The notes: generated from the sequence alone by a model not told the origin. Shown: positions 24,682 through 48,417, counted from the stretch's first letter. The stretch is DNA of 64,000 nucleotides from Scenedesmus sp. PABB004 (GCA_014905635.1 JABVCE010000008.1:62001-126000), one strand, 5' to 3'. Numbers and translations are program-made.

Positions 24682-24723
<42 letters not shown>

Positions 24724-26841: not shown

Positions 26842-27368
26842 CCCGCCGGGCGCGTCGTCGCGCCCGGGCAGCTCGGGCGGGCTCGGCGGGCAGCTCGGGG
26901 GCCTGCCAGGGTTGTGGCCGTGGGCGTGGCAATTCTGGCGCGCCAGGTCGTGAGCGCGCCGCGACGCCCGCGCGTGCAGTCCCGCCTCCGCCATCCCAGC
27001 ACCATGCGCTTCGCCCAGCTGTCGTCAGAGGTCAGCGCCCACGCGCTGCCCGAGGTTGCCGCCTACGTTGCGTACGCGGTCACCCCCCGACCGGCGAGGA
27101 CCGCGCCCCGGCATGCCGGCGACCCGGGCGCGGGTGCGTGCGGCACGGCGGGCACGGGGCGGGCGGGGGCGGGCGCGGCATGGGGCGTTGTTGCCTCGGC
27201 GCTGCCAGCGCGCCGAGGGGCCCTGCTGGCCGCCGCTCCTCCGCTTTGGCACGGCCCTGCGGCGCTGCGACCGTCGCCGTCGCCGGACGGCGGCGAGCCG
27301 CGGCGGTGGCGCGGCGGCGCGGCGTATCTGCAGGGCCCGCCGGTGTTGGCGCGCCGCGGCGGGCGGCG
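26842..27368 (+). repeat. Direct repeat A, copy 1 (~527 bp): duplicate of the 5' region, exon 1 and part of intron 1 of the MYND gene
   Basis: Matches 29150-29676 at offset 2308; I saw only two substitutions (26892 A/G, 27064 T/C). Confidence 0.95.
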
Positions 27369-27689
27369 CTGCCGTCGCCGTGCAGCCAGGCTGGCGGGGG
27401 CGGGCGGAGCCGCCTCACGCCCGCGCCCTGCGGCGCACTGCACCGGGACAGGCTCATCCCTTCTGCCGGGAGAAGCCCAGAGCCACAACACCCGCGCCTG
27501 CGGTCGGCGGCCGCTGCGCCCTGCGCCGCGCACCGCCGCCGACCGCCCGGCTGCCCAGCCCCGCCGCCGCGCCCGCTCCGTCGCCAATGCACACTCTGAG
27601 CTTGCGCTTGCGAACGCGCTGCGGGCCGCCACCGAACGACGCGCGGTCGAGCGGCTTCGCGCCAAGCTCTCCCACACACTCCGCTCGCG

Positions 27690-28877
27690 ATGCGCAGCGC
27701 GCCTGCGCTGGCGCGCTTGGGCGCGCAGCTGCAGCTGCTGCATGCGAGGAACTTCGCGGCCGGCGCGGCGTCGACGGCCAAGTCCACGTTCGCAGTTCCT
27801 GAGGGCCATCACGGCTCGGACCTGAGCAGCGCGGCCTGCCACATTGGCCTGGGTCGGCGGCGCGACCTGACCATGCGGCAGGACCTGAAGCTCTGGGACG
27901 GCGCGCAGGCGCTCACGCTGGCGGACGTCTTCCACGTGAGGCGGCGACGAGCAGCGGCGCCGCTGCTCGCTGCGCGCGCGGCCGCGGCGCACCCGGCAGC
28001 GGCAGCAGCGGCGGCGGAGAGGGCGCCGCCGGCGCGGGGACGGCGGCGCCGGCTGCAGCCGCAGCCGCAGCCGCAGCCGCGGCCGCAGCGCCCACCCGCC
28101 GCCGCTGTGTCTCGCCCGCGTGCGCAGAACTGCAAGACGCTGCTGGTGGGCTTCCCCGGCGGCAAGATCTGCACCGAGCAGCACGTCCCCGGCTACGCGC
28201 AGTCGGTGCGCGCGTCCCCGCCCCGCGCCAGCCGAGCGTGCCAGCGGCGGCGGGCCCCCCGATCGCTGCGGCTCCGCGCGCCGCTGCCGCGCCGACCGCC
28301 CACGCCGCGCCGCCGCCCCCGTGCGCCGCGCCGCAGGCCGCGGAGCTCAAGGCCGCGGGGGTGGACAAGGTGGTGTGCGTGACGGTGGCGCAGCCGGACG
28401 GCGTGCAGCGCTGGGCGGCGCAGCACGGCTTCGACAAGCCCGCCCACGTACGGCCGCGTGGCGCCCCGCGCCCGCCGGCACCCCCGCGCTCGCACCGCGC
28501 GCCCACCCCTGCCGCCCGGCGCCCTGCGCCGCGACTTGTGGCGCGCAGCTGCAGGTGCTGGCCGACCCCAAGTCGTCGTTCGTGCGGCTGCTGGGCCTCG
28601 AGCTCGGCCCGGACGGCCCGCCGTGCCAGCGCTTTGCCGCGGTCGTCGACAACGGCATCCTGCTGCGCCTGGTGAGCGCGCGCGCGGCACGCACGCGCCG
28701 CCACGGCGTCGCCGCGCGCCGGCGCGCGACGCGGGCAGCCGCAGGCAGCGAAGGCGGGCTGCTCACGCGCGGCCGCGCCGCGGCGGTGCTGCGCAGAAAG
28801 TGGAGCAGTCGCCGGCGGAGCTGAAGGTCACAGACCTGCGGAGCATGCTGAAGACCTTTGCCGACGCCTACGCCTGA
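27690..28877 (+). CDS. Type II (Prx5-like) peroxiredoxin/redoxin with organellar (probably mitochondrial) targeting peptide and atypical active-site loop; 5 exons
   Basis: LLVGFPGGKICTEQHVPGY, ELKAAGVDKVVCVTV, LADPKSSFVRLLGLE, RFAAVVDNGIL; presequence MRSAPALARLGAQLQLLHARNFA. Confidence 0.85.
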
Positions 28878-29149
28878 CGACGACCGGGGCCGCAGCTTGA
28901 CCGCGCGTGGGCAGGGGAGGGGCACCCAACACTGGACACGCCGGGGGCGGCGCTCGATTTTGTGCCCGCGCGCGCGGCGCCGCCGCGCCAGCTGCGATGC
29001 TGGCCGGCCGCGCCCGGCGCGCCTCACGCACTCTCAGAACGAGCGCTGCAGGGGGCTGGGGTGCGGGGTAAGCGAGGGCGACGCTGAGCGCACGCGCTGG
29101 TCGCCGCCGCCGTCGTCGCGCAACCTCGCTGGTGGTCGGTCGGGCAGTT

Positions 29150-29676
29150 CCCGCCGGGCGCGTCGTCGCGCCCGGGCAGCTCGGGCGGGCTCGGCGGGCG
29201 GCTCGGGGGCCTGCCAGGGTTGTGGCCGTGGGCGTGGCAATTCTGGCGCGCCAGGTCGTGAGCGCGCCGCGACGCCCGCGCGTGCAGTCCCGCCTCCGCC
29301 ATCCCAGCACCATGCGCTTCGCCCAGCTGTCGTCAGAGGTCAGCGCCCACGCGCTGCCCGAGGTTGCCGCCCACGTTGCGTACGCGGTCACCCCCCGACC
29401 GGCGAGGACCGCGCCCCGGCATGCCGGCGACCCGGGCGCGGGTGCGTGCGGCACGGCGGGCACGGGGCGGGCGGGGGCGGGCGCGGCATGGGGCGTTGTT
29501 GCCTCGGCGCTGCCAGCGCGCCGAGGGGCCCTGCTGGCCGCCGCTCCTCCGCTTTGGCACGGCCCTGCGGCGCTGCGACCGTCGCCGTCGCCGGACGGCG
29601 GCGAGCCGCGGCGGTGGCGCGGCGGCGCGGCGTATCTGCAGGGCCCGCCGGTGTTGGCGCGCCGCGGCGGGCGGCG
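29150..29676 (+). repeat. Direct repeat A, copy 2 (in its native position at the 5' end of the MYND gene)
   Basis: Matches 26842-27368. Confidence 0.95.
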
Positions 29677-32600
29677 GGCGGCGCTGCCCGGCGCCGCAGA
29701 GCTGGCGGGGCCCAGCCTCTCACGCCCACGCACCTCCGCACTTGCCGCCCTCCGCGCGCAGGCGCCGACCCGCCGGCCGCGCTGGCCGAGCTGCGGCATG
29801 CGGTCAGCGCGCGGGCGTCGCTGCTGACCGGCGGCGACGATGGCTGGGAGGCCGCCGCCTGGGCCACGCCCGACAGCGAGGTGCTGCGGGACGCGGCTGA
29901 GGCGGCCGCGGCGGCGCTGGCGGACGTGACGCGCGACGAGCCCGGCGCTGTCGCGGCCGCGGCCGCCGCCGTTGCCGCGGCCGTGGCCGGGGACGGCGGC
30001 CGCTGGCTGCCGCAGCTGTGCGAGCTGGCCGGCAGCGTGCGCGCCGCGTGGGGGGGCCTGGCGGGCGAGCTCAAGGCGCGCGACGCCGCGCCGCTGCAGC
30101 TCGCGGCGGCAGTCGGGCTCGTGCTGGCGCGCCTGCACCGCGCCGCGGCGCGCGTCGCGTCCGGCACCGGCGCGCCCGCGGCGCAGGCGGGTGCGCTGCT
30201 GCGCTGCCTGTGCGCCTGCCAGGGGGGCCTGCACGAAGCGCTGGCGGCGCACGCCTTCATCCTGCGCTGGCACGAGCAGCAGGCGGACACGGGCGGCGCG
30301 GGCGAGCAGGTGGACGCGCTGCTCCTGCGCGCGCCCCGCGGCGCCGCCGACGGCGCCGAGGCGCCGCCGGAGCCCGCGCGCCACGCGCCGCGCCTGCTGG
30401 CCGGCGGCGACGTGCCCGCCGCGCACCGGCGCTGGCAGCCGCGCTTCCTGCTGCCGCTCCTGCCGGCGTCCGGGCACTGGCGTGGCGGACGCGAGCTCCT
30501 GGCCGCGTGGGCCGCGCTCGCCGAGCGAGCGAGCAGCCTGGGCGTGCCGCTGGTCGCGACGCCGGGTGCGTGTCGCGCGGCTGGCTGGCGCGCTTGCCCA
30601 CGCGCGCGGGGGCGGCGGCTTGCGCGTCCCTGCTGACGACGCCGCCGGCCGGTCCCGCTCACCCCGCAGACGCGGTCTGCCTCGTCGTGGAGGCGCTGTG
30701 GCTCTTTGGCCAGCCCGCCGGTGGTTACCTGCCGGCCGCCTGGGCCGGCGCGCCGGCGGCTGATTGCGACGGCGACGACGACGACGACGCGCACCTGGTC
30801 GCGCTGTGGGCCAGCCTGCTGCCACGCCTGATCGCGTCGCTGGAGGCCGAGGCGCCGCCCGCTGGCGTGGTGGAGCGCCTGGTGGTGGCATGCGGCCCCA
30901 CGCTCCTTGGCATGCTGGGCGAGGCGCTGCAGCGCCTGGGGCGCGCCGACGGCGCCGTGACGCGCGCCGCGCTCGTCCGCTGCGTGCTGGACGCGAGCGA
31001 CGCGCCGCTGCTGGCGCGCCAGCGGCGCAGCGCGGCGCTGCTGGGCAAGGCGCGCCCCAAGCCGGGCGAGGCGGTGCCAGCGGAGCTCATGGCCCTCGCG
31101 CAGGGCCTCGCGAGCGCGGTGGGTGAGCTGCTGCGCCTGGAGCGCGCCGCGTGCGGCGGCGGCGCTGCCCCCGGCGACGGCGGCGGCGGCGAGGACGGCG
31201 GGGCGGTGTGGGTCGGCGCCCTGTGGCGCGCCAGCCCGCGTGGGCTGTGCGCACTGCTGGAGCTGCTGCTGCGCTCGCCCGTGCCGCCGGCGGCGCCGCT
31301 GGCCGGCCTCACCGAGCAGCTCCTGGGCGGCCTCTGGGCTGCCGTGCGGGCCGGCCCGCTGCTGGAGGAGCACGGCACCGCGCGCGCCGCGGCCGCGGCG
31401 ATCGTCTCGAGCCTCAAGGCGGCACGCTGCTGGCAGGCGGCGGCGGCGCGCGCGCTGGCGCTGGTGGGCGCAGACGCCGGCGCCGCGGCGCGCCGGGGCC
31501 GGCAGCAGGGCAAGGGCGGCGCCAGGGGCCGGCAGCCTGGCAAGGCGGCCGGCGCCACCGCGGTGGTGGCAGGGGGCGGCGAGGGCGCGCCGGCGCCGCC
31601 AGCCTGGATGCTGGCCGCGGCCGCGGCGGACAGCCAGGCGGCGCTGTGCGCGGGCCTGGCGCTGCTGGCGTGCTGCCTCGCGTGCACGCACGAGACGCTC
31701 GACTGGCGCCGGCGCGTGTGCGCGGCGCAGCAGCGCGCGGCGGCGCCCGCGCCGGCCGACGGCGTCGCCGACGGCCCCGGCCTGAGCAGCAGCCTGGGCA
31801 GCGAGAGCGTGTGGAGCAGCGGCAGCTTCCTGACCTCGAGTGACGACGATGAGGACGAGGACGGCGACGCCGACGCGGACGAGGCAGCCAACGCGGCCAT
31901 CGAGGCCGCGTCGTCGTGCGGGGCGAGCAGCGACGGCCTCAGCAGCTGCGGCAGCCCGCCGCGCGCCGCCCCCGGCTGCGCGCTGGCCCGCGCGGCGGCG
32001 CGCGCCGCGCCCGCCGCGCCCCCGCTGCCGCCGCCGTGCGCGCCGGGCAGCCACTGGGGCGACGTCGCGGTGCAGCTGGCGCTCGGCGCGGCCGCGCAGG
32101 CGGGCGGCGCGTTCGCGCTGCTCGGCGGCGCCGCGGCGGGCCAGGCGGACGGGGCGCTGGCCCTGCTCGAGCGCGTGTCGGCGGGCCTCGCCGCCACCGC
32201 GGTCAGCCTGGCCGAGCTCGCCCGGCTCGGCCTGCTGCCGGAGCTGGCGCCCGGCGCGCCCGCCGCGGAGGGCGCGGTGCGCGCCGCGCTGGCCGACATC
32301 CTCGCCGGCGGCGCCAGGGGCGGCGGGCGCCGCGCCGCCGCGCCGCCCGCCGGCGCGCCGGCAGACGCGCACCGCGCCTGGCGGGCGCGCCTCGCCCCCA
32401 GCGGCGCGCAGCAGCTGCACCTCGCGGCGGCGCTGTCGGCCGTGTCGCGCCAGCCGGCGGGCCCCGCCGCGGTGGGGTGCCACCACCCCGGCTGCTGCGA
32501 GCTGGCGGGCGAGAGCGAGCGGCGGCTGGCGACGCGCGCGTGCCGCGCGTGCCGCGCCGCCGCCTACTGCAGCCCCGCGTGCCAGGCGGCCGACTGGCGC

Positions 32601-32720
32601 GCCGGCCACCGCGCGCAGTGCGCGCACCTGCAGGCGGCCGCACAGGCGGAGTGGCTGCTCGCCGGCGGCGAGGGGGACGACGACGAGGGCGAGCGCGAGG
32701 AGGGGCGCGCCCAGTTTTGA
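29312..32720 (+). CDS. Large Ala/Leu-rich helical protein with C-terminal MYND zinc finger; exons ~29312-29441, 29762-30565, 30670-32720 (start tentative)
   Basis: CHHPGC...CRACRAAAYCSPACQAADWRAGHRAQC near the C-terminus; phase-consistent G|GTGCGT donor and GCGCAG acceptor. Confidence 0.75.
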
Positions 32721-33508
32721 TCGGCGCGCACGCGCGCGCGCGGACGGCATACGCCCCGCGCGCCGCGCGCCGCAGCAGGCATCGGTTGGCGCGGGCGGCT
32801 CTGCTGCTCTGTTTTCGGCGCACCGCGGTGCGCCCAGCTTGATCCCGGGGCCTCCTGTGAGGCGCCGCCTGGCGCGGCCGCGCGCGCTCGCCTGGCGCTG
32901 GTGCGTCGGCGGCGGCGGCGCCGCGCGCGCGCCGCGGGCCATCGCCCCGCACGGCCGCTCAGTGGCTCCGCTGGAAGAAAGCGGGGCGCACTCACGCACA
33001 CACTCACACACACATGCGCACACAGCGGCATGGGTTGGGGTGCGGGGGCTGTGGGAGGGGGCGGTCCGTCTCGCCGGTCATTGGGCCGCGTTGTTCCGAG
33101 GGGTTCGTGCGTGTGCGTCGCCGGCTTTTGGGTTGTACAACACCGACACAAGCAAAAACACACAAAAAAAAGCACATGTTGTGATGTTGTGAGAGAGCGC
33201 ACGCTGTCTGGGCAGCTGTACCGACCAGTACCAACAACCTTGTACACTAGCAAGGGGCGGCCAGGGGGAGCGCGCCGCCGCTGAAGGGGCCGCGCGCGCG
33301 CGGGCTGCCGCATTCGGCAGCGCGCGCGGCGCGTTGCGCGTGCGGCGGCGGGCAAGGGCGATCGGGGGTCGCGGCTGTCACCGGCCTTGTGTCCTGTGTC
33401 TTGTGCCTGTCTGCGGCGGCGGCGTGTGTGTGTGCTGCCAACCGGGCGCCGTGTGGGGTGAGAAGTTGCCAATTCAACGCTCTCCCGTCTCCCGTCCCTC
33501 TCGCGCTC

Positions 33509-36500
33509 TCACGCCTCGCCGTCGTCGAACAGCGGGTTCAGCGCGCCCTGCCCCCCAGGCGCCCGCGGCCAGGCCTGCCCGCCCGCGAGCGCCGCCGCCG
33601 CGGCGCGGACGTGGCCCGCGCGCGCGCTCACGGCAGCCAGCGACGGCCGTTGCCGCGGCTGCGCGGCCGGCCGCCACGCGCCGCCGGGGTGGCTGCCGCT
33701 GGCCGGCTGCGGTGGCCGACTGGCGGGCTGGCCGGGTCCGCCACCGCCGCTGGCCAGCGCTGGCGGCAGCGGGCGCGGCCGCGCTGCCGTCGGCGCGAGG
33801 CTCGGCCCGCGCTGCGCTGGCCGCTGCAGCTGCTGCTGCTGGCTCGGGCGCGCCCGGCCCGCCAGGCCGCGGCCGGCGCCCTCGTCGTCGGCCGGCGGGC
33901 CGCCGCCGTCGTCGTCGACGTACAGAAAGAAGCCCCCCGAGGGGGGCCGCCCCCTGCCCGTGCCGCTGCTGCTGCGGGCGGGTCGCTGCGGCGGCGGCCG
34001 CGCCGGCTCGGCCTCGTCGTCACCGGAGCTGCCCCGCCAGCCGCCGGTGCGGGGCTGGCCGCCCCGGAGGGCCTCCGCGCCAGCGTCGGCACCGACCAGG
34101 CTCTCCCTGCTCAGAGCGGCGCCGGCCCTCGCGACGGTGGGCGTCAGCGAGCTGCCGGCCCGGCGCGCGCCGCCCGGCGCGCTGGCGCCGGCCCCGGCGC
34201 GCGCGCTGCCGGCCGTCGCCGCCGCCGCTGCCGCAAATGGGCTGCCGCCCGTGCCGGCCGGTGCCAGCCCGGGCGTGCTGGCCGCCCTGCCGGGCTGCCG
34301 CAGCCGCTCCTGCGCCTGCAGCTCCCCCGACGGCAGGCGCGGCGGGCCCGCCGGCGGCCAGCCCGCGGAGCGCCTGCCGCCGCCGGCGCCCGGCCCGAGC
34401 TGCTGCTGCTGCTCGCCGTCTGGCTCGAACGCAGCGTTGTCGTAGGCGCGCGCGGGGCCGCCCGGCCAGCCGCCGAGCCGCGCCTCGCGGTAGCCGGCCG
34501 CCTGCTGCGCCGCGCCCACCAGCTCGACCAGCTGCGAGCGCGGCTGCGCGCCGCCCGCCGCCGAGCGCGGTTGCCGCGCCTGCGCGTGCGCGTGCGCGTG
34601 CGCGCCCGAGGGCCGCGCGCCGCCGGGCGCCGAGGCGGCGCGCGCGGCCGCGAGCTGCGGCGGCCTGCCGCCGGCCTCCCACCAGGCCCCCTGCGCTCCC
34701 TCGTCGTCGCTGCCGCCACTGCGGTCAAACAACGCCGCCGGCTTGCCTCCCTGCCGGCTGGCTCGCCACCCGGGCGTGTGGCCGCCGCCCGCCGTGGACT
34801 CGTCCCACGGGGCGGTGCCCGAGCCCCGCCGCCGGGGCGGCAGGCTGCCGCTGCCGCTGGGGCGGTGCGAGGCGCGGCGCCCGTGCCGCTCCGCCTCCAC
34901 CTCCTCGGCCGCCTCCCCCCAGTCCGCCCACTGCTGCGCGGGCCCCCGGCGGCGCTGTCGGCGTACGCGCCCGCCCGCTCGTCGCGGCCGTGCCGGCCGC
35001 GCGGCGCGTAGCGCTCGTCGGTCAGCTCGTCCGAGCCCGCGCGCGCCGCGTGGCGCGAGGACTCGCGGCGGTGCCGCCGCTGCGCGGCGCCCTTGCCGGC
35101 GGCCTCGTCCTCCCAGTCCTGGCTGCTGCCCCGGCCGCCGCGGCGCTCGCGGCGGGGCTCCCGGCGCCGCCCGCCGCCGCCGGCGCAGCACGCGAGGCAG
35201 CTGCCGGCCGCCTGCAGCGCGCTGCCGAGCAGCCCCGAGCGCAGCGCCAGGAACAGCAGCCCGCCGCCGAGCACCAGGCCGCCGAGCAGGCCCGCAAAGC
35301 CGCCCACGCGGCCCCAGCAGCCGCTGCGCACCGCACACACGACGTCGAGCCGGCTGCTGCACGCGGCGCAGCTGCGGTTGGACAGCGTGCCGGGGCCTGC
35401 GAGCGACGCATGCGCCGGCGCGAGGTGGTGGCGCCGCGGCGCACCGCGCCACGCCGCGCGCGCCGCCGCGCCGCACCCGTGCCGTTGCCGAGCAGGCCGC
35501 CGCTCGCCCACTCCTCGTACGCGGTGGCGTTGGTGTAAAACGGGACCTCGCGCGTGTCGCACACCTCGCCGCGCGCGTCGAGCATGGCCAGCCAGCAGCG
35601 GCGGCGCGGGGCAGCGGCGTCGTCCTCGACGTACACCACAAACGGCGGGATCGTCCCGTTTAGACCCGCCGCCAGCGCCACGCGCTGCGCCTCGACCGGC
35701 CGCACGTTGACGCTGCGCGCGCGCGGCAGCGGGAGCGGCAGCGGGTCGGCAGACCCGCTGGGCGGCGCGGCGGCTTGCTCGCGCACGCCGCGGGTGTGGG
35801 AAGCGCGAGTGCCGACCTGCAGTTTGTGACGGTGAGCGTGTAGGCGGCGGCGAGCGTGCCGGTGTTGGCCACCAGCGCGTGCAGGTAGCCGCGCGCCGCC
35901 GACGCCTCAAAGCCGCCGCAGCTGGACTCGGAAAACGTGCACATGCGCGCCGCTGCGCGCAGGGGCAGCAAGCAGCGCGCCGGCGCGTGAGCCAGCGGCG
36001 GCAGTGGGCGCGTGAGCCAGCGGCGGCTGCGCGCCGCGCGCGTGCGCGGCGGCAGGCGCCCACCCAGAATCTTGCAGGGGCTGGCCGCCACGACGAAGCG
36101 CAGGCTGTCCGCCTCCGCCTCGAGCTGCACCAGGCTGGCGCGCACGCCGGCGAGCGGCAGCGCGAACGAGAGCGGCCCGCCCGGCGCCGCGCGCAGGCCA
36201 GCGGCGAGGCCGTGCGTGAACTGGGAGACCAGGTACAGAGGCACACGCCCCGCCGCCACGCGCGCCACGTCGGCGGCCAGCAGGTCCTTGAGCTGCCCGC
36301 CGAGGCACACCTGGTGCAGTAGCCGCGCCGGTGGCGGGGCGCCGGGGCGCGTGGGTGCCCAAGCGGCGTGGCGCCGCCGCGCGGCTTGTTGCTGCGTGGC
36401 GCGGCGCGCCGCGCGGGGACGCGCGCGACGTGCCTGCGGCGCGCGCGTGCAGCCGCCTGGCTGGTAGCGGAAGGCTGTGAAGGAGGTGCCGACCTGGCGG

Positions 36501-38522
36501 CGCGGTGAGGCCAGGGCGTATGACGCCAGGGCGGGTGCGCGGCGGCCAGCGTGCCAGCCGGCGCGGCGGCCGTCGCGCCAGCGCCGGGGCCCGCGGGCAC
36601 CTTGTCGCACTCGGTGCCGTCAAAGGAGATGCGGCTGCGGTCGAGCAGCAGCCACTCGCTGCGGTTGGCAAACACGTCCTGCACGCTCTGGCCCACGCGG
36701 GGCCGGGGGATCATCAGCACCTTCTCACTGCAGTGCAGCGCAGCGCGGCGGCCGCGGCGGCGGCACGGTGGGCGGCGGTGGCGGCGGGCGGCGGCGTGCA
36801 CGCGGCTCGCGCGCGCGGCGGCTCGCGACCGGCGGCCGGGGCGGCGCAGCGCGCCCCACCTGAGCACTGGCGGCTGCACGTATCCGGCGAGGTCACCGAG
36901 CAGCTTGGCGCTGAGGGTGCGGTTGGCGCTCAGCGCGACGGGCGTTGACGGGCTGAGCGTGAGCACCTCGCCGCCCGCGCTGCCGTTGCCGCCGCCGGGC
37001 GCGAGCGACGCGGTAATGACGAACTGCAGCGACGCCTCGCCCAGGCCGTAGCCCTGCGGCGGCGGCACCCTGTGAGCCCCGCGCGGGCGCGGACGCGGCG
37101 CCGCCCGCCCTCGCGAGTCCGCCGCCGGGGTGCCGCCGCACGTGGCGCGCGCGCGGCGGCCCCGCTCCGCCCGCGAGCCCTCTGGCGGCGGCAGCAGGTG
37201 CCGGCACTCACCCCGTACCAGTGCGGGTCCATCATGAGGCAGTGCGCGCTGCAGGGCTTGCGGCCGATGAGGATGTCCAGCGGGTCGGCAAAGAAGTCGC
37301 AGTCCAGGTTGGCGCGCCTGCCCGCAGTCCCACGGCGGCGCCCGGGCGCGCGGGCGGCGGCGGCGGCGGGGCGTGGGCGGCGGCGGGGCACGCGCGCCTG
37401 CGCGGTGGCGCGCGACGCGCGGCCGGCCGCACGTGCGCTGCGTGTTCGTGCCAAAGGTCTCGTCCCAGATCTGCCCCGCGTCGCACTGGCAGGCAAAGCC
37501 CTGGCTGTCCACCACCGCCTTGCCGGACGCATAGTACCAGCCGCACGTGGGGCTCGCCTCCCACGCGCCGTCCTGCGGCGTCGGCGCCGCGCGCCCAGCG
37601 GCGGCGGCGGCAGGGCTCAGCAGCGGCGCCGCGGGGCCTCGCGGCGCGCGGCGCGCACGGTCGCCGAACTCGCGGCGCCGCCCCAGCGCGCGGCGCGAGC
37701 GGCGCTTGCGGACGTCGGGGCCGCCGTGCGCCGCGCGGGGCGAGGCGCGCCTTGCAGTTGCCCGCGCCGGGGCGCACGATGGCCTCGTATGGCTTGAAGT
37801 TGAACGACTGGAGGTACTGCAGCGGGTAGCTGCCCCACAGCGGGCCCTTGGTCAGGCTGACCACCAGGGTCGACGCGAGGTCGCGGCAGGCGCAGCTCGC
37901 GTCGGCGGCGTAGCTGCAGGGGCAGGGGCACTCGCCGCTTGGGCTGCGCGCGTGGCAGCGAGCGGCGCGGCGCGACGCGGGTCGGGCGCTGCGGCGCGCG
38001 TGGCGGCCCGGCCAGGCCAGGCAGCGTGGGAGGTTGCATGCCCACAGCCCCTGCACCTGCCCACGCAGGTGATGGCAAACTCAACGTCCTGGCTCGCGAG
38101 CGCGTCGCCGCTGTCGACGCTCACGACGACCACCAGCTTCTGCTTGCACGACAGCGCCGAGGCCACCTGCGGCGCCCGGCAGCCAGGAAGCAACGGCAGT
38201 GAGGCCAGCGCGGCCAGTGGCGGCTGCTGCAGCTTCGGGGCGCCCGCGCCGCGCACGCCGCCAGCCCGCTGCTCAGGCTCGGCGGCGCCGCTGGGGCGCT
38301 CTAGAGGCTGCAGCGGCGCATCCGGCGCAGCGATCGCGGAGCGTGTGCGCGTTTGGTGCCTGCGCAGGAGCCTGCCCCGCCCCGGCGGCGCCGCACCGTG
38401 CTGCCGTTGCGCACGCATGTCTCGAGCTTGCTCGAGGATATCACGTCCACGCCCGTGGCGCCGCGGATGCTGATCAGCGCTATCGCTGCGGCCAGTGCCC
38501 GCTGCCAGCGCCGCAGCAGCAT
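33509..38522 (-). CDS. HAP2: HAP2/GCS1 gamete membrane fusogen (class II fusion protein), multi-exon; apparent 1-bp frameshift in the cytoplasmic tail near 34945
   Basis: Signal plus DVISSSKLETC; CPCSYAADASCACRDL; TKGPLWGSYPLQYL; SPTCGWY...DSQGF; RANLDCDFFADPLDILIGRKPCSAHCL; GTECDK|VGTSF; TM segment and Cys cluster (SCLACC); closely follows Chlamydomonas HAP2 as I recall it. Confidence 0.95.
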
Positions 38523-38680
38523 CCGGGCATGGGGCTGGCGCCGCGGCGACGGTGGCGGGCGGCGCGTTGACCGCGGGCGCAGGCCAGCCTTTGCAGCCGG
38601 GTTGCATGCGCGCCCGGCAGCACGAACCGAGCAGCGCACCCACGCGACCCTGCACCGCCGACGAACGCGGCGCCGCCCGC

Positions 38681-40743
38681 TCAGGCGCCCGCGCCGCAGG
38701 CGGCCGGCACGCGCGCCGCCTCCTGCCCCTGCCCCTGCCCCTCGCGCGGCGCCGTCTGCTGGCGCTTCAGCGCCGGCTCCTCCGCGCACGCGCCCGCCGC
38801 CTGCTTGCCCAGCTGGCCAGCGGGCTGCTGCTCCTGCGCCTGCTGCTGCTCCTGCTGCTGCTCCTTCTGCGCCGCCTCTGCGCCGGCGACGCCCTGCTGC
38901 TGCAGCGCCGCCAGCGCCGCCGCCTCGCGCTCCTGCTCCGCGATGGCCGCCGCGCGCGCCGCCTCCTTCTCCATCTGCTTGAGCTTGCGCTCACTGATCT
39001 TGGGCTCCGGGTGCTGCCGCCCCGTGGCCGCCGCGAGGGCGCTCAGCTCGTTCACCTGCCCGCCGCGGCGCCGGCCGGCGCGCCGCGTGAGCAGCTGCAT
39101 GCACGCCGCCGCGCCGCGCGCCGGCCGCCGGCCGCGCCCGCCCGCGCGCGTCCGCGCGCCGCCACCGCAGCCGCCGCCGCACCAGCTTGAGGACGCCCGC
39201 CGCGCCGAGGGTGCTCGCCTCGCGGTTGAGCGTGTCGCGGATGTGGGTGAACTCTGCCAGCCAGCCCTGCGCCAGCTTGTGCACGTGGCCCTTGACCATG
39301 CGCATGTGCGTCGGGTGCGCCACGCACTGCTCCAGGTACGCGCGCGCCAGCGCGAGGCACTCCAGCGGCGTCGACCGCGCCTGCGGCGGCGCGGCGCGGG
39401 GGGCGTCGCGAGGCGGCGGCGGCGGCGCGGCGCGCGCGCCGGGCGCCGTGGCGCGCGTCCGCGTGCGCGCCTGCGGCGGACGCTCGGGGCTGAACAGGGC
39501 GGGGTCCATCAGCAGCGGCTCGGCCGAGAGCACGCCCTCCGCGCCGGTGGCCGCGAGCAGCGCGTCCGCGTCGGCCCGGCACCGCACGTCGCCGTTGGCC
39601 AGCACCGGGATGGCCAGCGCGGCGCGCACCGCCGCGATGGCCGCCCAGTCGGCGCGGTGCGCGGCGGCGTCCTGCGCGGCGCGCGCAGCGGCCGCGGCGG
39701 CGGCAGCGCGCTCAGCGGCGTCAGCGCACCCGCGTTGGCGCCCCGCCCCGCGCCCGCGCCCCTGTGCCCGCGCCCCTGTGCCCGCGCCCCCCGCACATCC
39801 ACGCGCTGCGCGCTGCGCCGCGCCGCGCCGCGCCGCGCCTTTTGTTCGCGCGTGCGCCCGTGCACGGCCAGCAGGCTCGCGCCCGCGGCCTGCAGCATGC
39901 GCGCATAGGCGAGCGTGTCGTGCAGGCGCGGGAAGAGGCGGACCTTGACGCTCACCGGCACCTCCAGCGCGGCCGCCGCGGCCGACACGATGCCGGCAAC
40001 GCGCGGCAGGTCGTCCATGAGGAAGGCGCCGTACTGCCCCCGCTTGGCGATGCGCTGCGGGCAGCCCAGGTTGAGGTCGACGTAGTCGGCAGACCCCTGC
40101 GGCGGCAGATGAGGGGGTGGGGGCGGCGGCGGAAAGGCGGCGGCGGCGAGTGAGCGAGCGGGCGGGCGGCGCGGCGAGCGACACGCGGGCCGCGCGCGCG
40201 CCCGTGGCTGGTCAACCCTAAACCCTCCAGCCGACCGACCTGCACGTGCGACGCGGACGCGATGAGCGTGGCGGCGTCGTTGGCGCAGAACTGCACAAAC
40301 AGCGGGCGGTCGCCGGGGCAGGTCGTAAAGTGCTCGGACCGGTAGTGCGGCTGCTCGCTGAACAGCCGCGCGTGCAGCATCGGCGTGTACGCCGCGCTCG
40401 CGCCGTGCGACCGACAGAGCATGCGGAAGGGGAGCTCGCTCTGCGGCGGCGGCGGACCCGGGAGCGGCTCGGCGGACCCGGCGGCGGCGCGGCGGCGAGG
40501 CGCCGCCGGCGCCGCCCCGCGCGCGCCACCCCCGCGGCGCACCTGGTCGACCATGGGCGCGACGTGGTACTTGGGGCTGCCCAGGGCGCGCCAGTAGGCC
40601 CATGCGCGCTGCGCGTGCGCCTCGAGCGCCGCCGGCTCGGCGAACGGCAGCGTCGGCAGCAGCGCCGCAGCGACGGCCGCCGGCCCGCCCTCCTCGCTGC
40701 CGGCCGCGCCCAGCCCGGGCACCTCGACGGCCGCCACGGTCAT
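38681..40743 (-). CDS. DUS1: tRNA-dihydrouridine(16/17) synthase, DUS1-like
   Basis: PKYHVAPMVDQ|SELPFRMLCR, YTPMLHARLF, DRPLFVQFCAND, VDLNLGCPQRIAKRGQYGAFLMD, LAVHGRTREQK, PVLANGDVR. Confidence 0.93.
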
Positions 40744-41413
40744 TGCGCGGCGCGCGGCGGCCGCGAGCGGCGCAACGGCGGCGCCGGCGGCGGCGGCGGC
40801 TCGAGCGGCTGCGACGGCGAGGGCCAGCGCGCTGGGTGTCACGGACCGGCGCGAGCGCGCGGGCGCGATGCGAGTGCGCGCGCGGGAGTGGGCGGTTGGG
40901 CGGCGCGGCGCGGCGGCAGCCGTCGCGCGGCGGGGTTCACCGAGCGCGGCTGCGGGGAGGCGGAGCGCTCGGGGGGGGGGGGGGGGGAGAGCTCGAGGCC
41001 AGGTTGCCGACCACCACCAGAACAGAGAGAGAAGCACTGCACACCACACTCGCACACCCCGACACGCGCGCTCTGCGACTCGGCCCGCCCCGGCACGGCA
41101 GGCGGCCCCGCCGCCGCAGAGCAGAGAGGCCGCTCACGCCAGCAATACCGCGCCGCACCGCGGCCCCACGCCGCCGCGCGCGCGCTGCGCGCGGCCGGCG
41201 CGCGCGCCGCGGCGCGGGCGCGCTCGCTCGCCGTGCATGCGCGCGGTGCCCCGTGCATGCGCGCCGTCGCTGGGTGCCCGGCACGCGCCGCGCCGACCCG
41301 AACACACATCCGCCGCCGCTGCTGCTGCTGCTGCTACATCCTACCGCCACCGCAGCTGCGCGCTCCTGCGCGCCGCCGCCGCTCCCGCACGCCCCCGCCC
41401 GCCACGCGCCGCT

Positions 41414-41414
41414 C

Positions 41415-41461
<47 letters not shown>

Positions 41462-41462
41462 C
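41414..41462. repeat. (CCGCGT)n microsatellite just downstream of the CTH1 stop
   Basis: About 7-8 tandem hexamers. Confidence 0.85.
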
Positions 41463-41466
41463 CCGC

Positions 41467-43752
41467 TCAGTAGCTGAGCTGGCTCTGGCTGGGCTCGAGG
41501 TCGAAGCTGCCGGTGGCCTTGGGGGTCATGATGAAAATCTGAAAGATCTCGGCCACCATGCGCTCCACCAGCGGCGCGCGCGCGAGCGCGACGAGCGGCG
41601 CGGGCAGGCCCTTGGCGCCGAGCGCGATGACCTGCTCGTTCAGGCGCACGAGGCGGTCCATCTTGACGAAGAACTCGGGGTGCTCCACGTCCGGCACGGC
41701 CGGGAAGATGCGCTCCGTGGTCTTGTTGGTCTCGATGATCACGTGCTGGTTGAACTGCGGCAGCGCGGCGCAGAGCGGTGCGCGGCGGCGGGGTGAGGCG
41801 TGGCGCGGCGCGGCGCGGCGCAGCGTGCGCGGGCTGTGGCGCGGCGCGGCGCGGCAAGCCAGCGCGGCGCGGCGTCGCGCACCTGCGTGGTGTTGAGGCC
41901 GAGGGACTCGTAGAAGGCGGAGCGCTGGTGGTCGTTGAGGTACATGGTGATGTAGACGGAGAGGCAGAAGAAGCGGCTCCACAGCTTGGCGACCCAGTCG
42001 TTGACAAACTCGGGCCGCACCTGGGGGGGGGGGGGGGGGCAGACAGAGAGCGGGCGCAGCGGGGAGGGGAGCTCAGCGCGCGCGCGCTCGGCGGTCACGT
42101 GTGCAGCGGCCGGCTGCTAGCCCGCCCCCGCGCCGCCTCCACACACCCCCGCCCCCGCACCGCACCTTGAGCAGGGCGGAGAAGAAGTCGCCGTGCCTGT
42201 TCTCGTCCTGGCACCAGTTCTCAAAGTACTCGAAGAGCGGGTAGAGCTGGTTGTCAGGGTTGCGCTGGAGGTGGCGGTAGATGCTGATGTAGCGCCAGTA
42301 CCCGATCTTCTCGCTCAGGTAGGTCGCGTAGATGATGAACTTGGGCTTGAAGAACGTGTACTTCCTGTGTCACGCAGGAGGGCAGCGACGGCGGCGGCGG
42401 CGCGCGGGTCAGCGAGGGAGGGGGCAGCGCGCGCGCGCGGGGCCGCAGCGCGCGCGCAGGCCGTGCGCAGGCCGCGCAGGCCGCGCGCGCGCAGGCCGCG
42501 GCGCGCAGGCCGCGCGTGCGCCCTGCCCACCTGTTCTTGGTGAGGAAGCCGAGGTCGAGCGCGAGGTTGAAGTCGCTCATCGCCTTGTTGAGGAAGCCCG
42601 CGTGCCGTGCCTCGTCGCGCGACATGAGCGTGAAGATCTCGGCCACGACCGGGTTGGTGCTCTTCAGGCGGCGCCCCAGCTCCTGCGCGCGTTGGGACAC
42701 GCGCGCGCGAGAGAGGGGGGGGGGTGTCAAGGGTCAGCAGGGGTTTGAGCATCAGCGCGCGCGCGCAGCCGCCCACGACACTGTGTCAGCCGCCGCATAC
42801 ACCCAGCCCCCGCGCCCCGCGTGCACGTGTGCGCGTGCGCCGCGCGTGCGCCGTGCGCCGCTGCCGCGCCTTGTAGAGCAGGAAGCCGGAGAACTCTGCC
42901 GTGCAGGAGCGCTCGAGGAACTCGATAAAGATCTTGCGCGTCTCGCCCGTGATGCCCTCCGCGGCGGCCTTGAACGTGTCGTTGCGCACAAAGTGGCGCT
43001 GGTTGTAGTCGTTCTTGAACTCGGTGCACATCGCCTCGAGCTCCTCCATGTCGAGCCCCGGGTTGATCTGCTGGCTGAAGAGCTGCTCCATCTCGTCAAA
43101 GTCGCTGCGGGGCGGGGAGGGAGCGGCAACGGAGGGCGAGGAGGGGTCAGGGCGGCGGCAGGGCGCGCGCGCGCCGCCGCGGGCGCGGCGGCAGTGGCGG
43201 GCGCGCGCGCGCGCCGGCCCCGCGGCCGACGCCGCGCTGCGCCGGGCGCGGTGCGCGTTGGCGCGCGGGCACGGCTGCCACCGCTGCCGACGCCGCTGCC
43301 GCCGCTGCCGCCGCCGCCGCTGCCGGCACTGCTCGCCGGGCGCTGCGCCGCTGCCGCCTGCTGCCGGCGCCGCTGCCGCTGCTGCTGCGCGCCGAAACCA
43401 CCCATTACGCGCCGCTGCCCCCCCGTGCGCGCTCGCCGCGGCGCTCATTGGCCGCCGCCCGGGCCCGGCGCCGCCCCGCGAGGGCGGCCAGGGCTGAGGG
43501 CGGCCCGCCTGGCCGCTGCGGGCGGACGCAGCAGGCCGCATCCACTCACGTCGTGTAGAAGCGCGGCGTGAGCAGCGACTCGGCCGACGCCTCCTTCACG
43601 CCGTTGCGCATGGTCTTGAAGCCCAGGTCCTCGCTCGCGGCCGCGGCCTGCACGCGCACCGACCGGCGCGCGCTCACGCGAGCGGCCCGGCGCCCCTGCA
43701 CGCAGCTGGCACGCGCCAGGCTGCTCTGCGCCTTGAGCATGGTCGCGGCCAT
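41467..43752 (-). CDS. CTH1: Mg-protoporphyrin IX monomethyl ester oxidative cyclase (CHL27/AcsF family; CTH1-like paralog), 6 exons
   Basis: [69 protein letters not shown]-terminus [16 protein letters not shown] resembles CTH1 more than CRD1. Confidence 0.95.
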
Positions 43753-43831
43753 GGCTGACGCGCGGCCGGGAGCGAATGAGGCGCCGGGGGCGGGTGGATG
43801 GGGCGGTCTGGCTCGCTCGCGCGACTGCGGC

Positions 43832-44389
43832 GCTGCGGCGCTGCGGGCGGGGCGGCGGTGGCTGCGGCGGGCGCCTGGCGACTGCTCGTGTGCCGTCGCG
43901 GTCGGTGCTGCGTGGATCCGGTCCATCGGCGCCATCTTGGTCAGGTTTAGGGCCGGGGCCAGCGAACGTCACCGCCACACGCGCGCGCCCGGCGCCGCGC
44001 CGCCCCCGCACCGGGCGCCGCGGCCGCAGCGCGCGACACCGCGACCGCCTGCGACCGCTGGCGCGGCCACGGGGCGCCTGGGCCGATGGTCATCGCCCAG
44101 GGGTCCTGGCCCAGGGTCGTCCGCTGAGCTGCCTGCCTGCGCGCCGGGCGCGACAGCTCCCCCAGCTGCTGCGGCGGCGCCTGCTGCCCTGCACTCCGCG
44201 GCTGCTGCTCGCTCCGCCGGCGCCGCCGCCGCCGCCGCCGCCTCGCCGCCGCCGTCGCCCGCCGCGGCCGCCGCGAGCGCCCCGGCGCCGCCGCCCGCGC
44301 CCGCGCGGCCGCCGCGCACGCCGGCGGGCACGCCGCCCGGCTCGACGACGTGCGCGCGGCTGCCGGGCTTGAGCTGCCGCTGCAGCTTG
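43832..44389. repeat. Direct repeat B, copy 1 (~560 bp): duplicate of the TTC33 last-exon end, 3' region and CTH1 upstream region
   Basis: Near-identical to 47173-47730 with a few substitutions and 3-6 bp indels; the TTC33 stop TGA is GGA in this copy (44104-44106). Confidence 0.95.
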
Positions 44390-44405
44390 CCAGTGCCGCC
44401 CTCGT

Positions 44406-46928
44406 TCACGCTCGCGGCATCCAGAGCACTGCGGCCCCTTGCTGCCGCTTCACCGCGGCGGCAGCGCAGCGCATGGCCTCGGCCCAGCTCGCCTCAGCCC
44501 CGGACGCCCCGGCGCGCACGGCCAGGCCGGCGCCGGCGCGGCGGCGCAGCTGCGTGTCTGGCTGGCGTCCCTGCAGCAGTGCGTCCACGCTGCGCTCGAC
44601 GTCCAGGTGCAGGCGCAGGCTGCGTCACAGAGCGGGGCGTGGGCGGCGTGGGCAGGCAGCGTTGTAGGCACAGGCCTGTGGACCCTCGCCGGCCGCAGCC
44701 GGGCTGACCACCCTGCCCGCGCACCTGTCGCGCGAGGTGAGCTCGACCAGCGCCGTGAAGGTGGCAGCGCCCGCGCGCTCGGTCCGCGTCTGCGCGTCGG
44801 CGGCGGCCGCGCAGACGCGGTCAGCGAGGGACGCGCGGGGCAAGAGCAGCCTCGAGCGCGGCGCACGGGCAGACCCACCTTGGGGCCGCCGGCTGCGGCT
44901 TCGTCGCCGAGCGTGACCGTCGTCACGCCGCCGACGAGCGGGCGAAGCTCCGGGTTCTTGAGCAGCTGGCTCAGGCTGGCCCCGTGCGCGGTGCCGATCA
45001 GGATCACACCGCGCTGCGCGATCGTGCGCGCGGCCGCCACCTCCTGCGTGTGCGAGGCATGCCGGCGGCCGCGGTCAGCCCACGAGCTGGGCCCGGGCAG
45101 GCTGCAGGCAGTTGCCGCGTCCCAGGAGCGCCAGGCCTGGTGCGCGCACCTCCTTGGTGCCGATCTCGTCGACGATGATGACGTCGGGCGTGTGGTTCTG
45201 CACCGCCTCCACCAGCACCGCCGCCTGCTCCTCGCGGCGGCGCACCATCAGGCGCCGCGCGTGGCCGACGGACGGGTGGCGCTGCGCCGCGTCGCCTGAG
45301 GGAGACCCAGCGGGCGCGCGGGCAGCATGTCGGGCGGGCCGGAGCCCGGCGGCAGCCCGCGCGGCTGCCAGGCTGCTGCCGCGCGCTGGCCCGCTGGGCG
45401 CGCACCCGCGATCTCGTTGCTTGTGTCCACGATGACCACCGCCAGCCCGAGGCCGCCCTCCTCCGGCGGCAGGCTCAGCAGGCGCGCGCAGTCGCGCAGC
45501 AGCGTGGTCTTGCCGGTGCCTGCGGCGCGAGACCGGCGGCGCGCGGGGTCGGGGTGCGCCTGGCCGGCCCCAGCGCGCGGCCTGCGAGCTGGTCGCTGCC
45601 GCGGCCGCACGCGCGCCCAGCGCCGCGCCTGGGCGGCCGAGCACGAGCAGGCTCTGCTGACGCTCTGAGTCGGGCGCGCGGAGCGAGGCCTTGAGCCAGC
45701 TCAGCACGTCGGTCAGCGCCTTGGCCGCGCCCGGGACGTGGCGCCCGACGCGGAGGGTCAGCCCGATGACGCGCCCGCTGCGGTCGCGCACGGCGCTGAC
45801 GCGGTGCAGCTGCCCCGGCACGCCCAGCCGGTTGTCGCTCCCCCAGGGGAGGTCAAACGAGAGCTCCGTGGAGCCCGCTGGCTCGCCTGCGGACTCGCCC
45901 TCCGTGCTGTCGCCCACCGTGGCAGCGTCGCCGCCCGGCGCCGGCGACGAGCCGCGCTGCTGCGCGGCCGCCAGGCGGCGCAGCGCGTCGCGCACGTCGC
46001 GGCGCTCGGCCACGACCGGCAGGGCGACGGACGCTCCGTCCGACAGCCGCACCTGCACGGCGTGCCCCGCGTCCACCGCGACGTCCACCAGCAGCGGCTC
46101 GCCGGGCGCGGGGTCCGCGAAGCACGCCAGGTGCGGGCGCAGGCTGCGTGGCGGCGCGGGCGCGCGGGGTGAGCTGGCAAGCCGAGGCCCAGCCGCGCTG
46201 GAGTGCGCGGCCGCACCAGCACACCTGTGGGGTAGGAGCTCCAGGAGGCTCGCGGCGTGCGGGTCGCCGCCAGGGTGCGCTGCGACCATGCCGCAGGGCG
46301 TGGCGTTGTCGAGGACGTCGCCAGTGTGTGGCACAACCCAGCTGTTGGGCAGGGCCCGCATCTCCAGCGCGCGCCAGTCGGCCTGTGCCGCATGCGCCAG
46401 CGCTGCGCGTGCACCGCCGGCGCCGCCGCTGCTGGCGCTGCGGTCGCTGGGCGCGCTGTCGCCGTTGCTGCCGCTCAGCGACAGGCTGTCGTCGGTGTCC
46501 CGGCTGCCGGCGAGCACGAGCAGGGCAGAGGCGTCCAGCGTCACGGTGCCGCCGTTGTTGGCCGACGTGCGTTGTACGCCAAAGCACGGCGACGCCGCCA
46601 GCGCCTTGACGAACCGCATGCCAAGGCGGAGCTTGAGTGGGCTGGGCAAGGTTTTGCCCACCGCATTGGTCACCTGGGCCACTGTGCCGCGCATCCGCCG
46701 CCGCTTGGCGAGGTACAGCGCAGCGCGCCGGTAGACGGCAACCTCCGCCGCGCTGGACGCCGCGGGCCACACCCGGTCAACCGCCCGCCGCACGGCGTCG
46801 GCGGAGGGCGCCGCCGAGGTGGCAACGGCGCGGCGCGGCGGCTGCGGCGCGGCGGCACCGGTGCGGCGCTGCTGCGCCAGCAGCTGGCGTCCCCGCCAGC
46901 GCGCGGGCGCGGCGCGGCGGAGCCGCAT
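44406..46928 (-). CDS. ycf45: Ycf45/SpoIIIAA-like AAA ATPase with transit-peptide-like N-terminus and an extra N-terminal domain; no R3H domain seen
   Basis: LHRVSAVRDRSGRVIGLTLRVGR, Walker A LGRPG|TGKTT, VVIVDTSNEIAG, EAVQNHTPDVIIVDEIG, GVILIGTAHG, LVGGVTTVTLGDE. Confidence 0.88.
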
Positions 46929-47172
46929 GCTACGCTTGCAAGCCCATGGGGAAGGGGCGGAAGACAGGCTCAGGCACGGAATGGGGCGGCTGGGGGTGCT
47001 AGAGGGCGAGAGGCACTCAACCGCCGCTGCTGTCTCGTGCCGGTGATTGGCTCCGATAGCGGCTGCACTGCTGCGCAGCCAGATGGAGCGCTCTGCCGGG
47101 ATCGAGGTGGCCGGGCGGGGCACGGACTGGCTCGGCGCGGCAGGCGTCACCGCGTGGCGCGCGCCCGGCGCT

Positions 47173-47730
47173 GCTGCGGCGCTGCGGGCGGGGCGGCGGT
47201 GGCTGCGGCGGGCGCCTGGCGACTGCGCCGTCGCGGTCGGTGCTGCGTGAATCCGGTCCATCGGCGCCATCTTGGTCAGGTTTAGGGCCGGGGCCAGCGA
47301 GCGTCACCGCCACACGCGCGCGCCCGGCGCCGCGCCGCCCCCGCACCGGGCGCCGCGGCCGCAGCGCGCGACACCGCGACCGCCTGCGACCGCTGGCGCG
47401 GCCACGGGGCGCCTGGGCCGATGGTCATCGCCCAGGGGTCATGGCCCAGGGTCGTCCTCTGAGCTGCCTGCCTGCGCGCCGGGCGCGACAGCTCCCCCAG
47501 CTGCTGCTGCGGCGGCGCCTGCTGCCCTGCACTCCGCGGCTGCTGCTCGCTCCGCCGGCGCCGGCGCCGCCGCCGCCGCCGCCTCGCCGCCGCCGTCGCC
47601 CGCCGCGGCCGCCGCGAGCGCCCCGGCGCCGCCACCCGCGCCCGCGCGGCCGCCGCGCGCGCCGGCGGGCACGCCGCCCGGCTCGACGACGTGCGCGCGG
47701 CTGCCGGGCTTGAGCTGCCGCTGCAGCTTG
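47173..47730. repeat. Direct repeat B, copy 2 (contains the functional TTC33 C-terminus and stop codon)
   Basis: Matches 43832-44389. Confidence 0.95.
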
Positions 47731-48417
47731 GCCAGCATCTGCGCCTCCGGCAGCTCCTCCGCCAGGCCCGGGTGCGCCGGTGCGAGCCTGGCCGCTGCGG
47801 GCGCGGGCGCGGTGGCGCGGCGGGCTCTCGCGCGCAGCCCGTGGTGCGGCGCGCGGCACGACGGCGCCCGCCCGCCGGCGCGCGCCGCTGGCCGCACCTT
47901 GCTCATAGCTTTGCAGCGCGAGGACGGGCTCGCCCAGGTTGAGGTGCGCGCGCGCGAGCGTGACGTGCGCGTCGGGCCAGTCTGGCCGCAGCGCCACCGC
48001 CTGCCGCGCCGCCGTGACCGCCTCGTAGCTGCGCCCCAGGCCGTCCAGCACCTGCGCGCGCATCTCAAACGGCTCCGCCAGGCTCGGGCAGATCTGCGGC
48101 GGCGGCGGTGGCGGCGTCGCGGCGCGTCGGTCCACGCGTGCAGCGGCGAGCGAGCGCGCCTCGCGCTGCCGCGGCCGCCACACCAGCGCCGCCTGCTCCC
48201 AGCAGCGGAGCGCGACGAGCGGCTGCCCCGCCTCCTGCGCCGCGACGCCCTTGTCGGCCCAGCGCCGCGCCGCGCCCGCCGCCGCCGCCGCGTCGCTCGC
48301 CGCCGCCGCCGCGTGCGCGGCGCCGCCCTCGTCGCCGTCGTCCGCCGCAAACGCTGCGAGCGGCGGCCGCGGCAGCTTTGCGGGCCGCCCGCCGCCGCCG
48401 CCGATGCGGAAGGCCAT
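47439..48417 (-). CDS. TTC33: TPR repeat protein, TTC33-like, 3 exons
   Basis: KGVAAQEAGQPLVALRCWEQAAL|ICP...EMRAQVL...AVALRPDWPDAHVTLARAHLNLGEPVLALQSYEQ. Confidence 0.75.

Follow-up and report, generated by a model that had tools for sequence, protein, structure and literature searches.

Half-kilobase direct repeats of neighboring-gene sequence around two spliced genes in a Scenedesmus nuclear locus: possible copying of a repeat unit past a resident gene

The stretch of 64,000 nucleotides analyzed here, from Scenedesmus sp. PABB004 (GCA_014905635.1, JABVCE010000008.1:62001-126000; in the following 'the window', with positions counted from its first letter), carries two pairs of direct repeats, A and B, each of which brackets a single complete gene with introns: a Redoxin-family gene in pair A and a gene for a SpoIIIAA/ycf45-like P-loop ATPase in pair B. 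Judged by its spliced genes and their green-algal relatives, for instance in Tetradesmus and Monoraphidium, the window is nuclear chlorophyte DNA, probably from near the Sphaeropleales. Its G+C content is 73-83% throughout, which leaves all six reading frames open, and genes were therefore located via codon-position G+C and splice-site reading. The gene models were drawn by eye and then compared with homologs; two of their elements are putative, namely the first exon of the MYND gene and the GC donor at the first intron of the ATPase gene. Pfam searches with the stop-to-stop open reading frames (ORFs) of the interiors and with single exons returned almost no matches, so that the interior genes were identified via their homologs. 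The elements of the two pairs are as follows:

26842-27368, unstranded: repeat A1, 527 bp, flanked by the JmjC/F-box and Redoxin genes; copy of the MYND upstream region, exon 1 and the start of intron 1
27369-29149, plus strand: interior A, 1781 bp; Redoxin-family (type II peroxiredoxin-like) gene with five exons, 27690-28877
27690-27935, 28128-28205, 28337-28447, 28549-28671 and 28797-28877, plus strand: Redoxin exons, from splice-site reading and green-algal homologs
29150-29676, unstranded: repeat A2, 527 bp; 5' region, in its native place, of the MYND gene, which has a zf-MYND domain in its main ORF
43832-44389, unstranded: repeat B1, 558 bp; copy of the last 292 coding nucleotides of the TPR gene (the stop reads GGA) and of 266 nt downstream
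44390-47172, minus strand: interior B, 2783 bp; SpoIIIAA/ycf45-like P-loop ATPase gene with six exons, 46928-44406
46928-45629 (putative GC donor), 45519-45406, 45295-45150, 45043-44879, 44789-44725 and 44619-44406, minus strand: ATPase exons, from splice-site reading and homologs
47173-47730, unstranded: repeat B2, 558 bp; native TPR 3' end (coding 47730-47439) and 266 nt downstream
47439-48417, minus strand: TPR gene (TTC33 in the initial annotation of the window), two exons, from 48417 to near 47899 and from 47794 to the stop at 47439

Within the sequence, both pairs are real, and their similarity far exceeds what chance would give. In pair A (26842-27368 versus 29150-29676, spacing 2308), 525 of the 527 bp of each copy match without a gap, and the two mismatches, at 26892/29200 and 27064/29372, amount to a divergence of 0.4%. 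Pair B (43832-44389 versus 47173-47730, 558 bp per copy) aligns with 546 matches, six mismatches and three indels of 6, 3 and 3 bp; its divergence is 1.1%, and its nine differences are evenly spread, without patchy tracts. One of the six mismatches lies in the stop codon of the TPR gene, which reads TGA in B2 (47441) and GGA in B1 (44106) on the gene strand. In a self-comparison of the whole window, A and B are the sole dispersed repeat pairs, the remaining repeats being a 69-bp tandem array and an 86-bp palindrome, and older, decayed pairs were not found. The repeat ends are sharp: alignments of the flanks score no better than those at random places in the window. Apparent homology past the repeat ends was accordingly rejected, as random places reached the observed flank score in 108-231 of 300 trials with local alignment, and in 62-218 of 400 trials with alignments anchored at the boundary. 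Likewise, apparent microhomology at the junctions (CTGCC, CCAG) was rejected, as it lies within chance in the random-place nulls.

The initial annotation had placed the two pairs at these positions and had described them as neighboring-gene rather than transposon sequence, each bracketing one complete spliced gene that is co-oriented with the next gene. These points are borne out by the alignments, by the content of the repeats (the MYND 5' region in A, the TPR 3' end in B), by the end-to-end alignment of both interior gene products with green-algal homologs, and by the gene orientation in both interiors.

The Redoxin gene, present in a single copy in the window, lies within interior A with margins of 321 nt before its ATG and 272 nt after its stop. 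Its product aligns over the full length with green-algal proteins of family PF08534, and shares with the green-algal homologs P0003-P0007 the motif FPGGKICTEQH and a conserved N-terminal block (..VPEGHH.SDLSS.ACHIGLGRRRDL..). On these shared features, the predicted gene belongs to a green-algal subfamily with this unusual motif, whose spacing we take to be altered relative to the classical one. Downstream, the best model for MYND exon 1 spans 29312-29441, ends in a consensus donor (CGG/GTGCGT) and is joined to an acceptor at 29762. With the exception of one weak candidate (29798), all workable MYND start codons lie inside A2. Repeat A thus comprises the region upstream of MYND, its first exon and 235 bp of the intron that follows, with A2 as the native copy, and it likely carries the MYND promoter. 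A1, in turn, holds a copy of the candidate exon 1 at 27004-27133 together with the first 235 bp of intron 1. This exon copy could be spliced in frame into Redoxin exon 1 via acceptors at 27601, 27652, 27667 and 27796 without meeting a stop, which would make a chimeric Redoxin N-terminus possible.

In interior B, 244 nt lie upstream of the ATPase start codon. Residues 259-637 of the 667-residue product align with residues 421-831 of the 849-residue homolog P0047, and the two proteins have tails of similar length past the last conserved block; therefore, the ATPase gene is not truncated. Its first intron seemingly uses a GC rather than a GT donor (45628-45627, minus strand), the sole splice that retains the P-loop of the homologs (GRPGTGKTT). 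On the far side of the interior, the TPR orthologs P0086 and P0090 keep the sequence ...AQM.AKL...PGSRAHV... across the repeat boundary at 47730. B2 is thus native to the TPR gene, and the possibility that it is an inserted copy that replaced the TPR tail was rejected, given the conservation of this tail. B1 starts 16 nt past the ATPase stop and ends 79 nt ahead of the ATG of the chlorophyll cyclase gene, and must therefore supply both the 3' end of the former and the upstream region of the latter.

Several classes of event can be held against these observations. At the interior ends, we found neither terminal inverted repeats nor long terminal repeats beyond GC-rich noise. Transposase or integrase genes were absent as well, with zero Pfam mobility families in nine interior ORFs and the scanned exons (the genes' own strands, a part of the six frames), in agreement with the initial annotation, which had reported neither a transposase nor terminal inverted repeats. 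Retroposition does not fit: the Redoxin gene has four introns and the ATPase gene five, and there is no A/T run at the junctions; the initial annotation's claim of events at the DNA level holds, given these introns. A 5'-truncated retrocopy of the TPR mRNA as the origin of B was rejected, since its end lacks an A-run. Nor are the copies arranged head to tail, as in a simple tandem duplication, since unrelated unique sequence, 1781 bp in A and 2783 bp in B, separates them. Two further classes each agree with the findings in one respect. In both A and B, direct repeats of unique host sequence bracket the interior, as after an insertion that leaves a long duplication of its target. At the same time, the copied sequence is kept elsewhere, with one copy in its native context (A2 in the MYND gene, B2 in the TPR gene), as after a templated insertion. 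From sequence alone, the arrangement is symmetric between the insertion of a gene and the copying of a repeat past a gene already in place.

At the family level, the genes of the window comprise JmjC plus F-box-like, zf-MYND, TPR, AcsF-type cyclase, Dus, TFIID-NTD2 and HAP2/GCS1. The initial annotation had given three of the neighbors the specific names JMJ22, TTC33 and CTH1; what stands of these are the families, JmjC/F-box-like, TPR and AcsF-type cyclase. The neighbors that matter for the comparisons below, and one further gene, are:

24145-26492, minus strand: JmjC/F-box-like gene (JMJ22 in the initial annotation) with Cupin_8, JmjC and F-box-like matches; ATG at 26492, 349 nt from A1
35484-38522, minus strand: HAP2/GCS1 gamete-fusion gene, Pfam PF10699, E-values 8e-11 and 3e-4, two exons
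38681-40743, minus strand: dihydrouridine synthase (Dus) gene, Pfam PF01207, the sole Dus gene of the window
41470-43752, minus strand: Mg-protoporphyrin IX monomethyl ester cyclase gene of the AcsF family (CTH1 in the initial annotation); ATG at 43752, TIGR02029, E-value 2e-39, one exon

Among the spacers measured in the window, the shortest, with 158 nt, separates the Dus stop codon from the start codon of HAP2. The presence of HAP2/GCS1 hints at a sexual cycle in this alga. As for the other repeats of the window, the tandem array (10916-11451) has a period of 66-69 bp and about seven units of 65-80% identity, and the palindrome (5562-5646, 86 bp) is near-perfect, with 88% self-complementarity.

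Public metagenome contigs, scanned with Redoxin exon 1, yielded five loci, L001-L005, which are too distant or too short to show an uninterrupted target. One of them, L002 (3073 bp, 55% GC), contains a Redoxin ortholog in which all five exons are matched, followed by a Dus fragment on the opposite strand. This fragment is 50% identical to the Dus protein of the window over 58 residues (E-value 1e-17). In the window, 10 kb separate the Dus and Redoxin genes, which converge just as the adjacent pair in L002 does. By our own estimate, the probability of such a match by chance is about 1%. Given this linkage, the Redoxin gene has probably long resided in its neighborhood rather than arriving recently, and at least one of the two bracketed genes probably did not move. 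Some apparent matches in the other loci were discarded: Pfam shows nothing at a weak JmjC match in L004 and a 4HBT thioesterase at a weak Dus match in L003, while a WD40 match in L005 is a generic repeat, not collinear with the TFIID-like gene of the window. Among the homologs, fused gene models revealed no neighbor that maps into the window.

A freshwater metagenome, X1, is the only matching public run, with 5% of sampled words and no RNA run among the matches. The match implies that the organism or a very close relative lives in fresh water. Mapped onto 27250-47249, X1 yields short contigs of low depth, from a strain that is about 98.4% identical (31 mismatches in 1978 positions, or 1.6%, in the eight pieces shown). 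One contig of 315 nt aligns to 29124-29439 with a single gap and five mismatches; 26 nt of it belong to interior A and the remainder to A2. At 18 of the 26 positions of this anchor, the sequence of the alternative flank is different. The contig is a mosaic that agrees with A1 at 29200 and with A2 at 29372. For the remaining junctions, X1 provided no bridging, the listed joints having sides of 20-28 nt and looking spurious. Furthermore, A1 and A2 differ at two of 527 positions, where about eight differences would be expected had the duplication predated the split from the X1 strain (Poisson P of about 0.01, by our own arithmetic). With 0.4% between the copies and 1.6% between the strains, either the duplication is younger than the split or gene conversion keeps the copies alike. 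In this comparison, the junction between interior A and A2 looks like the old one, and A1 like a young copy.

We therefore favor, with about an even chance of being right, an explanation in which a unit of roughly 0.5 kb was copied across a resident gene during the repair of a chromosome break, in independent and fairly recent events at the two loci. As part of this reading, and with the same evenly divided confidence, we take the events not to be transpositions. The bracketed gene would already have been present when a break occurred in the spacer on one of its sides, and the break would have been patched with about 0.5 kb templated from the gene's far side, at a distance of 2-3 kb within one molecule and with the orientation kept. 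The type of pathway may have been a templated, or 'filler', insertion, by synthesis-dependent strand annealing (SDSA) or end-joining. In pair A, the MYND promoter, exon 1 and intron start (A2) would have been copied into the JmjC-Redoxin spacer to give A1; in pair B, the TPR 3' end and the spacer behind it (B2) would have been copied between the ATPase and cyclase genes to give B1, probably replacing part of the former spacer. Accordingly, we infer that A1 and B1 are the newer copies. Selection would retain only direct-orientation copies in spacers that leave every gene with a promoter and a terminator; this would account for each pair bracketing exactly one whole gene. Both interior genes are in fact complete, have conserved orthologs and are single-copy in the window, while it would be rare for a random fragment of 1.8-2.8 kb to contain just a single whole gene and to leave margins of 16-321 nt around it. 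Further in line with copying are the native state of A2 and B2, the lack of inverted ends, transposase or further copies in the scanned sequence, and the occurrence in the window of tail-to-head spacers down to 158 nt.

A number of observations weigh against this explanation. Before the copying, only 95 nt would have separated the ATPase stop from the cyclase ATG, less than the shortest spacer measured; it is therefore necessary to postulate a deletion and the replacement of a promoter for pair B, which fits less well than pair A. Microhomology at the junctions nowhere exceeds chance in the flank nulls. The synteny argument comes from one contig of one distant relative, and the other metagenome loci have other neighbors: L003 carries a 4HBT thioesterase, L001 and L005, which represent one organism (99.9% overlap), carry a WD40 gene, and L004 shows nothing recognizable. 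The 26-nt anchor of the X1 contig is below the 31-nt threshold for bridging, at a depth of 2.3, and gene conversion could also hold A1 and A2 alike. Moreover, the presence of only young pairs (0.4% and 1.1%) would be more natural if the inserts were dispensable and were lost through recombination between the repeats.

This last point would be expected under the explanation given in the initial annotation, namely that a gene with its introns and short flanks was inserted as DNA into a spacer (JmjC to MYND, and TPR to cyclase) and that the target was duplicated in the process. The break ends would have been staggered by about 0.5 kb, or a circle would have integrated, and the fill-in would have duplicated 527 or 558 bp and thereby provided the newcomer with a promoter and a terminator. 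As that annotation had stated, removing an interior together with one repeat restores a clean gene order, leaving 511 nt between the JmjC ATG and the candidate MYND ATG and 345 nt between the TPR stop and the cyclase ATG. The testable outer junctions (A2 to MYND, B2 to TPR) are native, as the insertion of a gene requires, and with B1 placed 16 nt off the ATPase stop codon and 79 nt ahead of the cyclase start, neither a deletion nor the replacement of a promoter is called for. There are, furthermore, precedents described for Arabidopsis (PMC2869330) and bacteria (PMC2853133). On the other hand, the Redoxin-Dus link in L002 would mean that the gene landed by chance within 10 kb of an ancestral neighbor, both inserted fragments would need to contain exactly one complete gene, and the junction between interior A and A2 is seemingly present in the X1 strain, which is more diverged than A1 is from A2. 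A search for paralogs or donor loci of the passenger genes, as proposed in the initial annotation, detected no second copy of either interior, be it donor or remnant, within the window. Of the proposed relocation with a giant target duplication, the DNA-level nature and the unique host repeats thus stand, whereas its application to pair A conflicts with the linkage of Redoxin to Dus. Overall, we consider the insertion of a gene fairly unlikely, and possible mainly for pair B.

Gene conversion acts readily on direct repeats that lie 2-3 kb from each other, and the X1 contig does combine A1 (29200) and A2 (29372) states. An older or multi-step history, in which a unit of repeat plus gene was duplicated in tandem and one of the genes then deleted, or in which conversion kept an old duplication homogeneous, would make use of these properties, but it demands two precise events per locus. 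The repeat ends, moreover, are sharp, without decayed homology outside the repeats, and the nine differences of pair B are even and show no patchy tracts, which renders such a history improbable. Finally, one copy of A, of B or of both may have been falsely duplicated in the assembly, via haplotype overlap or a mis-join. The near-identity of A1 and A2 would suit such an artifact, and the sole read set is the X1 metagenome with its 5% of sampled words; yet the copies differ (by two substitutions in A, and by six substitutions and three indels in B), false duplications usually adjoin a gap or each other rather than a unique gene of 1.8-2.8 kb, and the junction between interior A and A2 has some independent, if weak, support from the 26-nt anchor in X1. 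We regard an artifact as very improbable.

Whether a gene was inserted or a repeat was copied past it, each event duplicated a spacer that bears a promoter or a terminator. The suggestion in the initial annotation that the duplication may supply such elements agrees with the content of the repeats, which carry regulatory ends, B1 serving the ATPase gene as its 3' end and the cyclase gene as its upstream region. If the repeats were copied past resident genes, a duplicate of the promoter and first exon of MYND would now precede the Redoxin gene; the ATPase gene terminates in a duplicate of the TPR 3' end, which also fronts the chlorophyll cyclase gene. This would be a simple, testable route by which neighboring genes gain each other's regulation. 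At the same time, direct repeats of half a kilobase leave the enclosed genes prone to clean deletion. For annotation, caution is advised, as both repeats contain pseudo-exons. The occurrence of two events within 64 kb hints that their rate in the genome is high, and one may speculate, although we find it unlikely, that a frequent, enzyme-free process sets direct duplications of regulatory spacers of about 0.5 kb around single genes in this extremely GC-rich alga. If so, such a process, be it the slotting-in of genes or the copying of promoters and terminators, would be a main route, genome-wide, for gene relocation, regulatory rewiring and reversible gene loss.

Among known systems, templated insertions of filler DNA at double-strand breaks, reportedly described by Gorbunova and Levy in 1997 and by Salomon and Puchta in 1998, resemble the present case in that host DNA is copied into a break without a transposase, with sharp junctions and with the donor kept; a size of hundreds of base pairs fits as well. 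Here, however, the donor lies 2-3 kb away in cis, with exactly one gene in between, and this is found twice in 64 kb; the junction microhomology, too, is not above chance. Tandem duplications by fill-in of break ends are said to have been treated by Schiml et al. in 2016 and by Vaughn and Bennetzen in 2014. The fill-in of staggered breaks with 3' protrusions is described as giving rise to small, adjacent tandem duplications (Schimmel et al., 2021, PMC8355091). Staggered ends of this kind would explain a target duplication, but in contrast to the small and adjacent duplications described there, the units found here measure 0.5 kb and have a whole gene between them. In grasses, filler-DNA repair is reported to move gene-bearing fragments (Wicker et al., 2010, as cited in PMC3445842).

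Restriction-modification genes of bacteria are described as undergoing 'insertion with long target duplication', in which the repeats measure 46 to 423 bp and mobility genes are lacking (Furuta, Abe and Kobayashi, 2010, PMC2853133; Nobusato et al., 2000, cited therein). As in this description, gene units lie here between long, variable direct duplications of a unique target, without mobility genes. The bacterial case is prokaryotic, linked to competence and proven by the comparison of strains, whereas ours concerns spliced housekeeping genes of a eukaryotic nucleus. Our literature search returned no comparable gene insertions with target duplication in green algae. A further counterpart comes from Arabidopsis, for which transposed genes with introns are described that are flanked by genic direct repeats of 30-550 bp, which occur once at the target in A. 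lyrata (Woodhouse, Pedersen and Freeling, 2010, PMC2869330). That study presents the empty A. lyrata target and often the parental copy, too. The likeness extends to spliced genes between direct repeats of genic host sequence that is not derived from transposons; unlike the transposed genes described there, the gene within pair A seems to be an old resident. In view of these systems, the kind of event is already known and the architecture is not new, and the value of the present locus is that of a well-dissected example.

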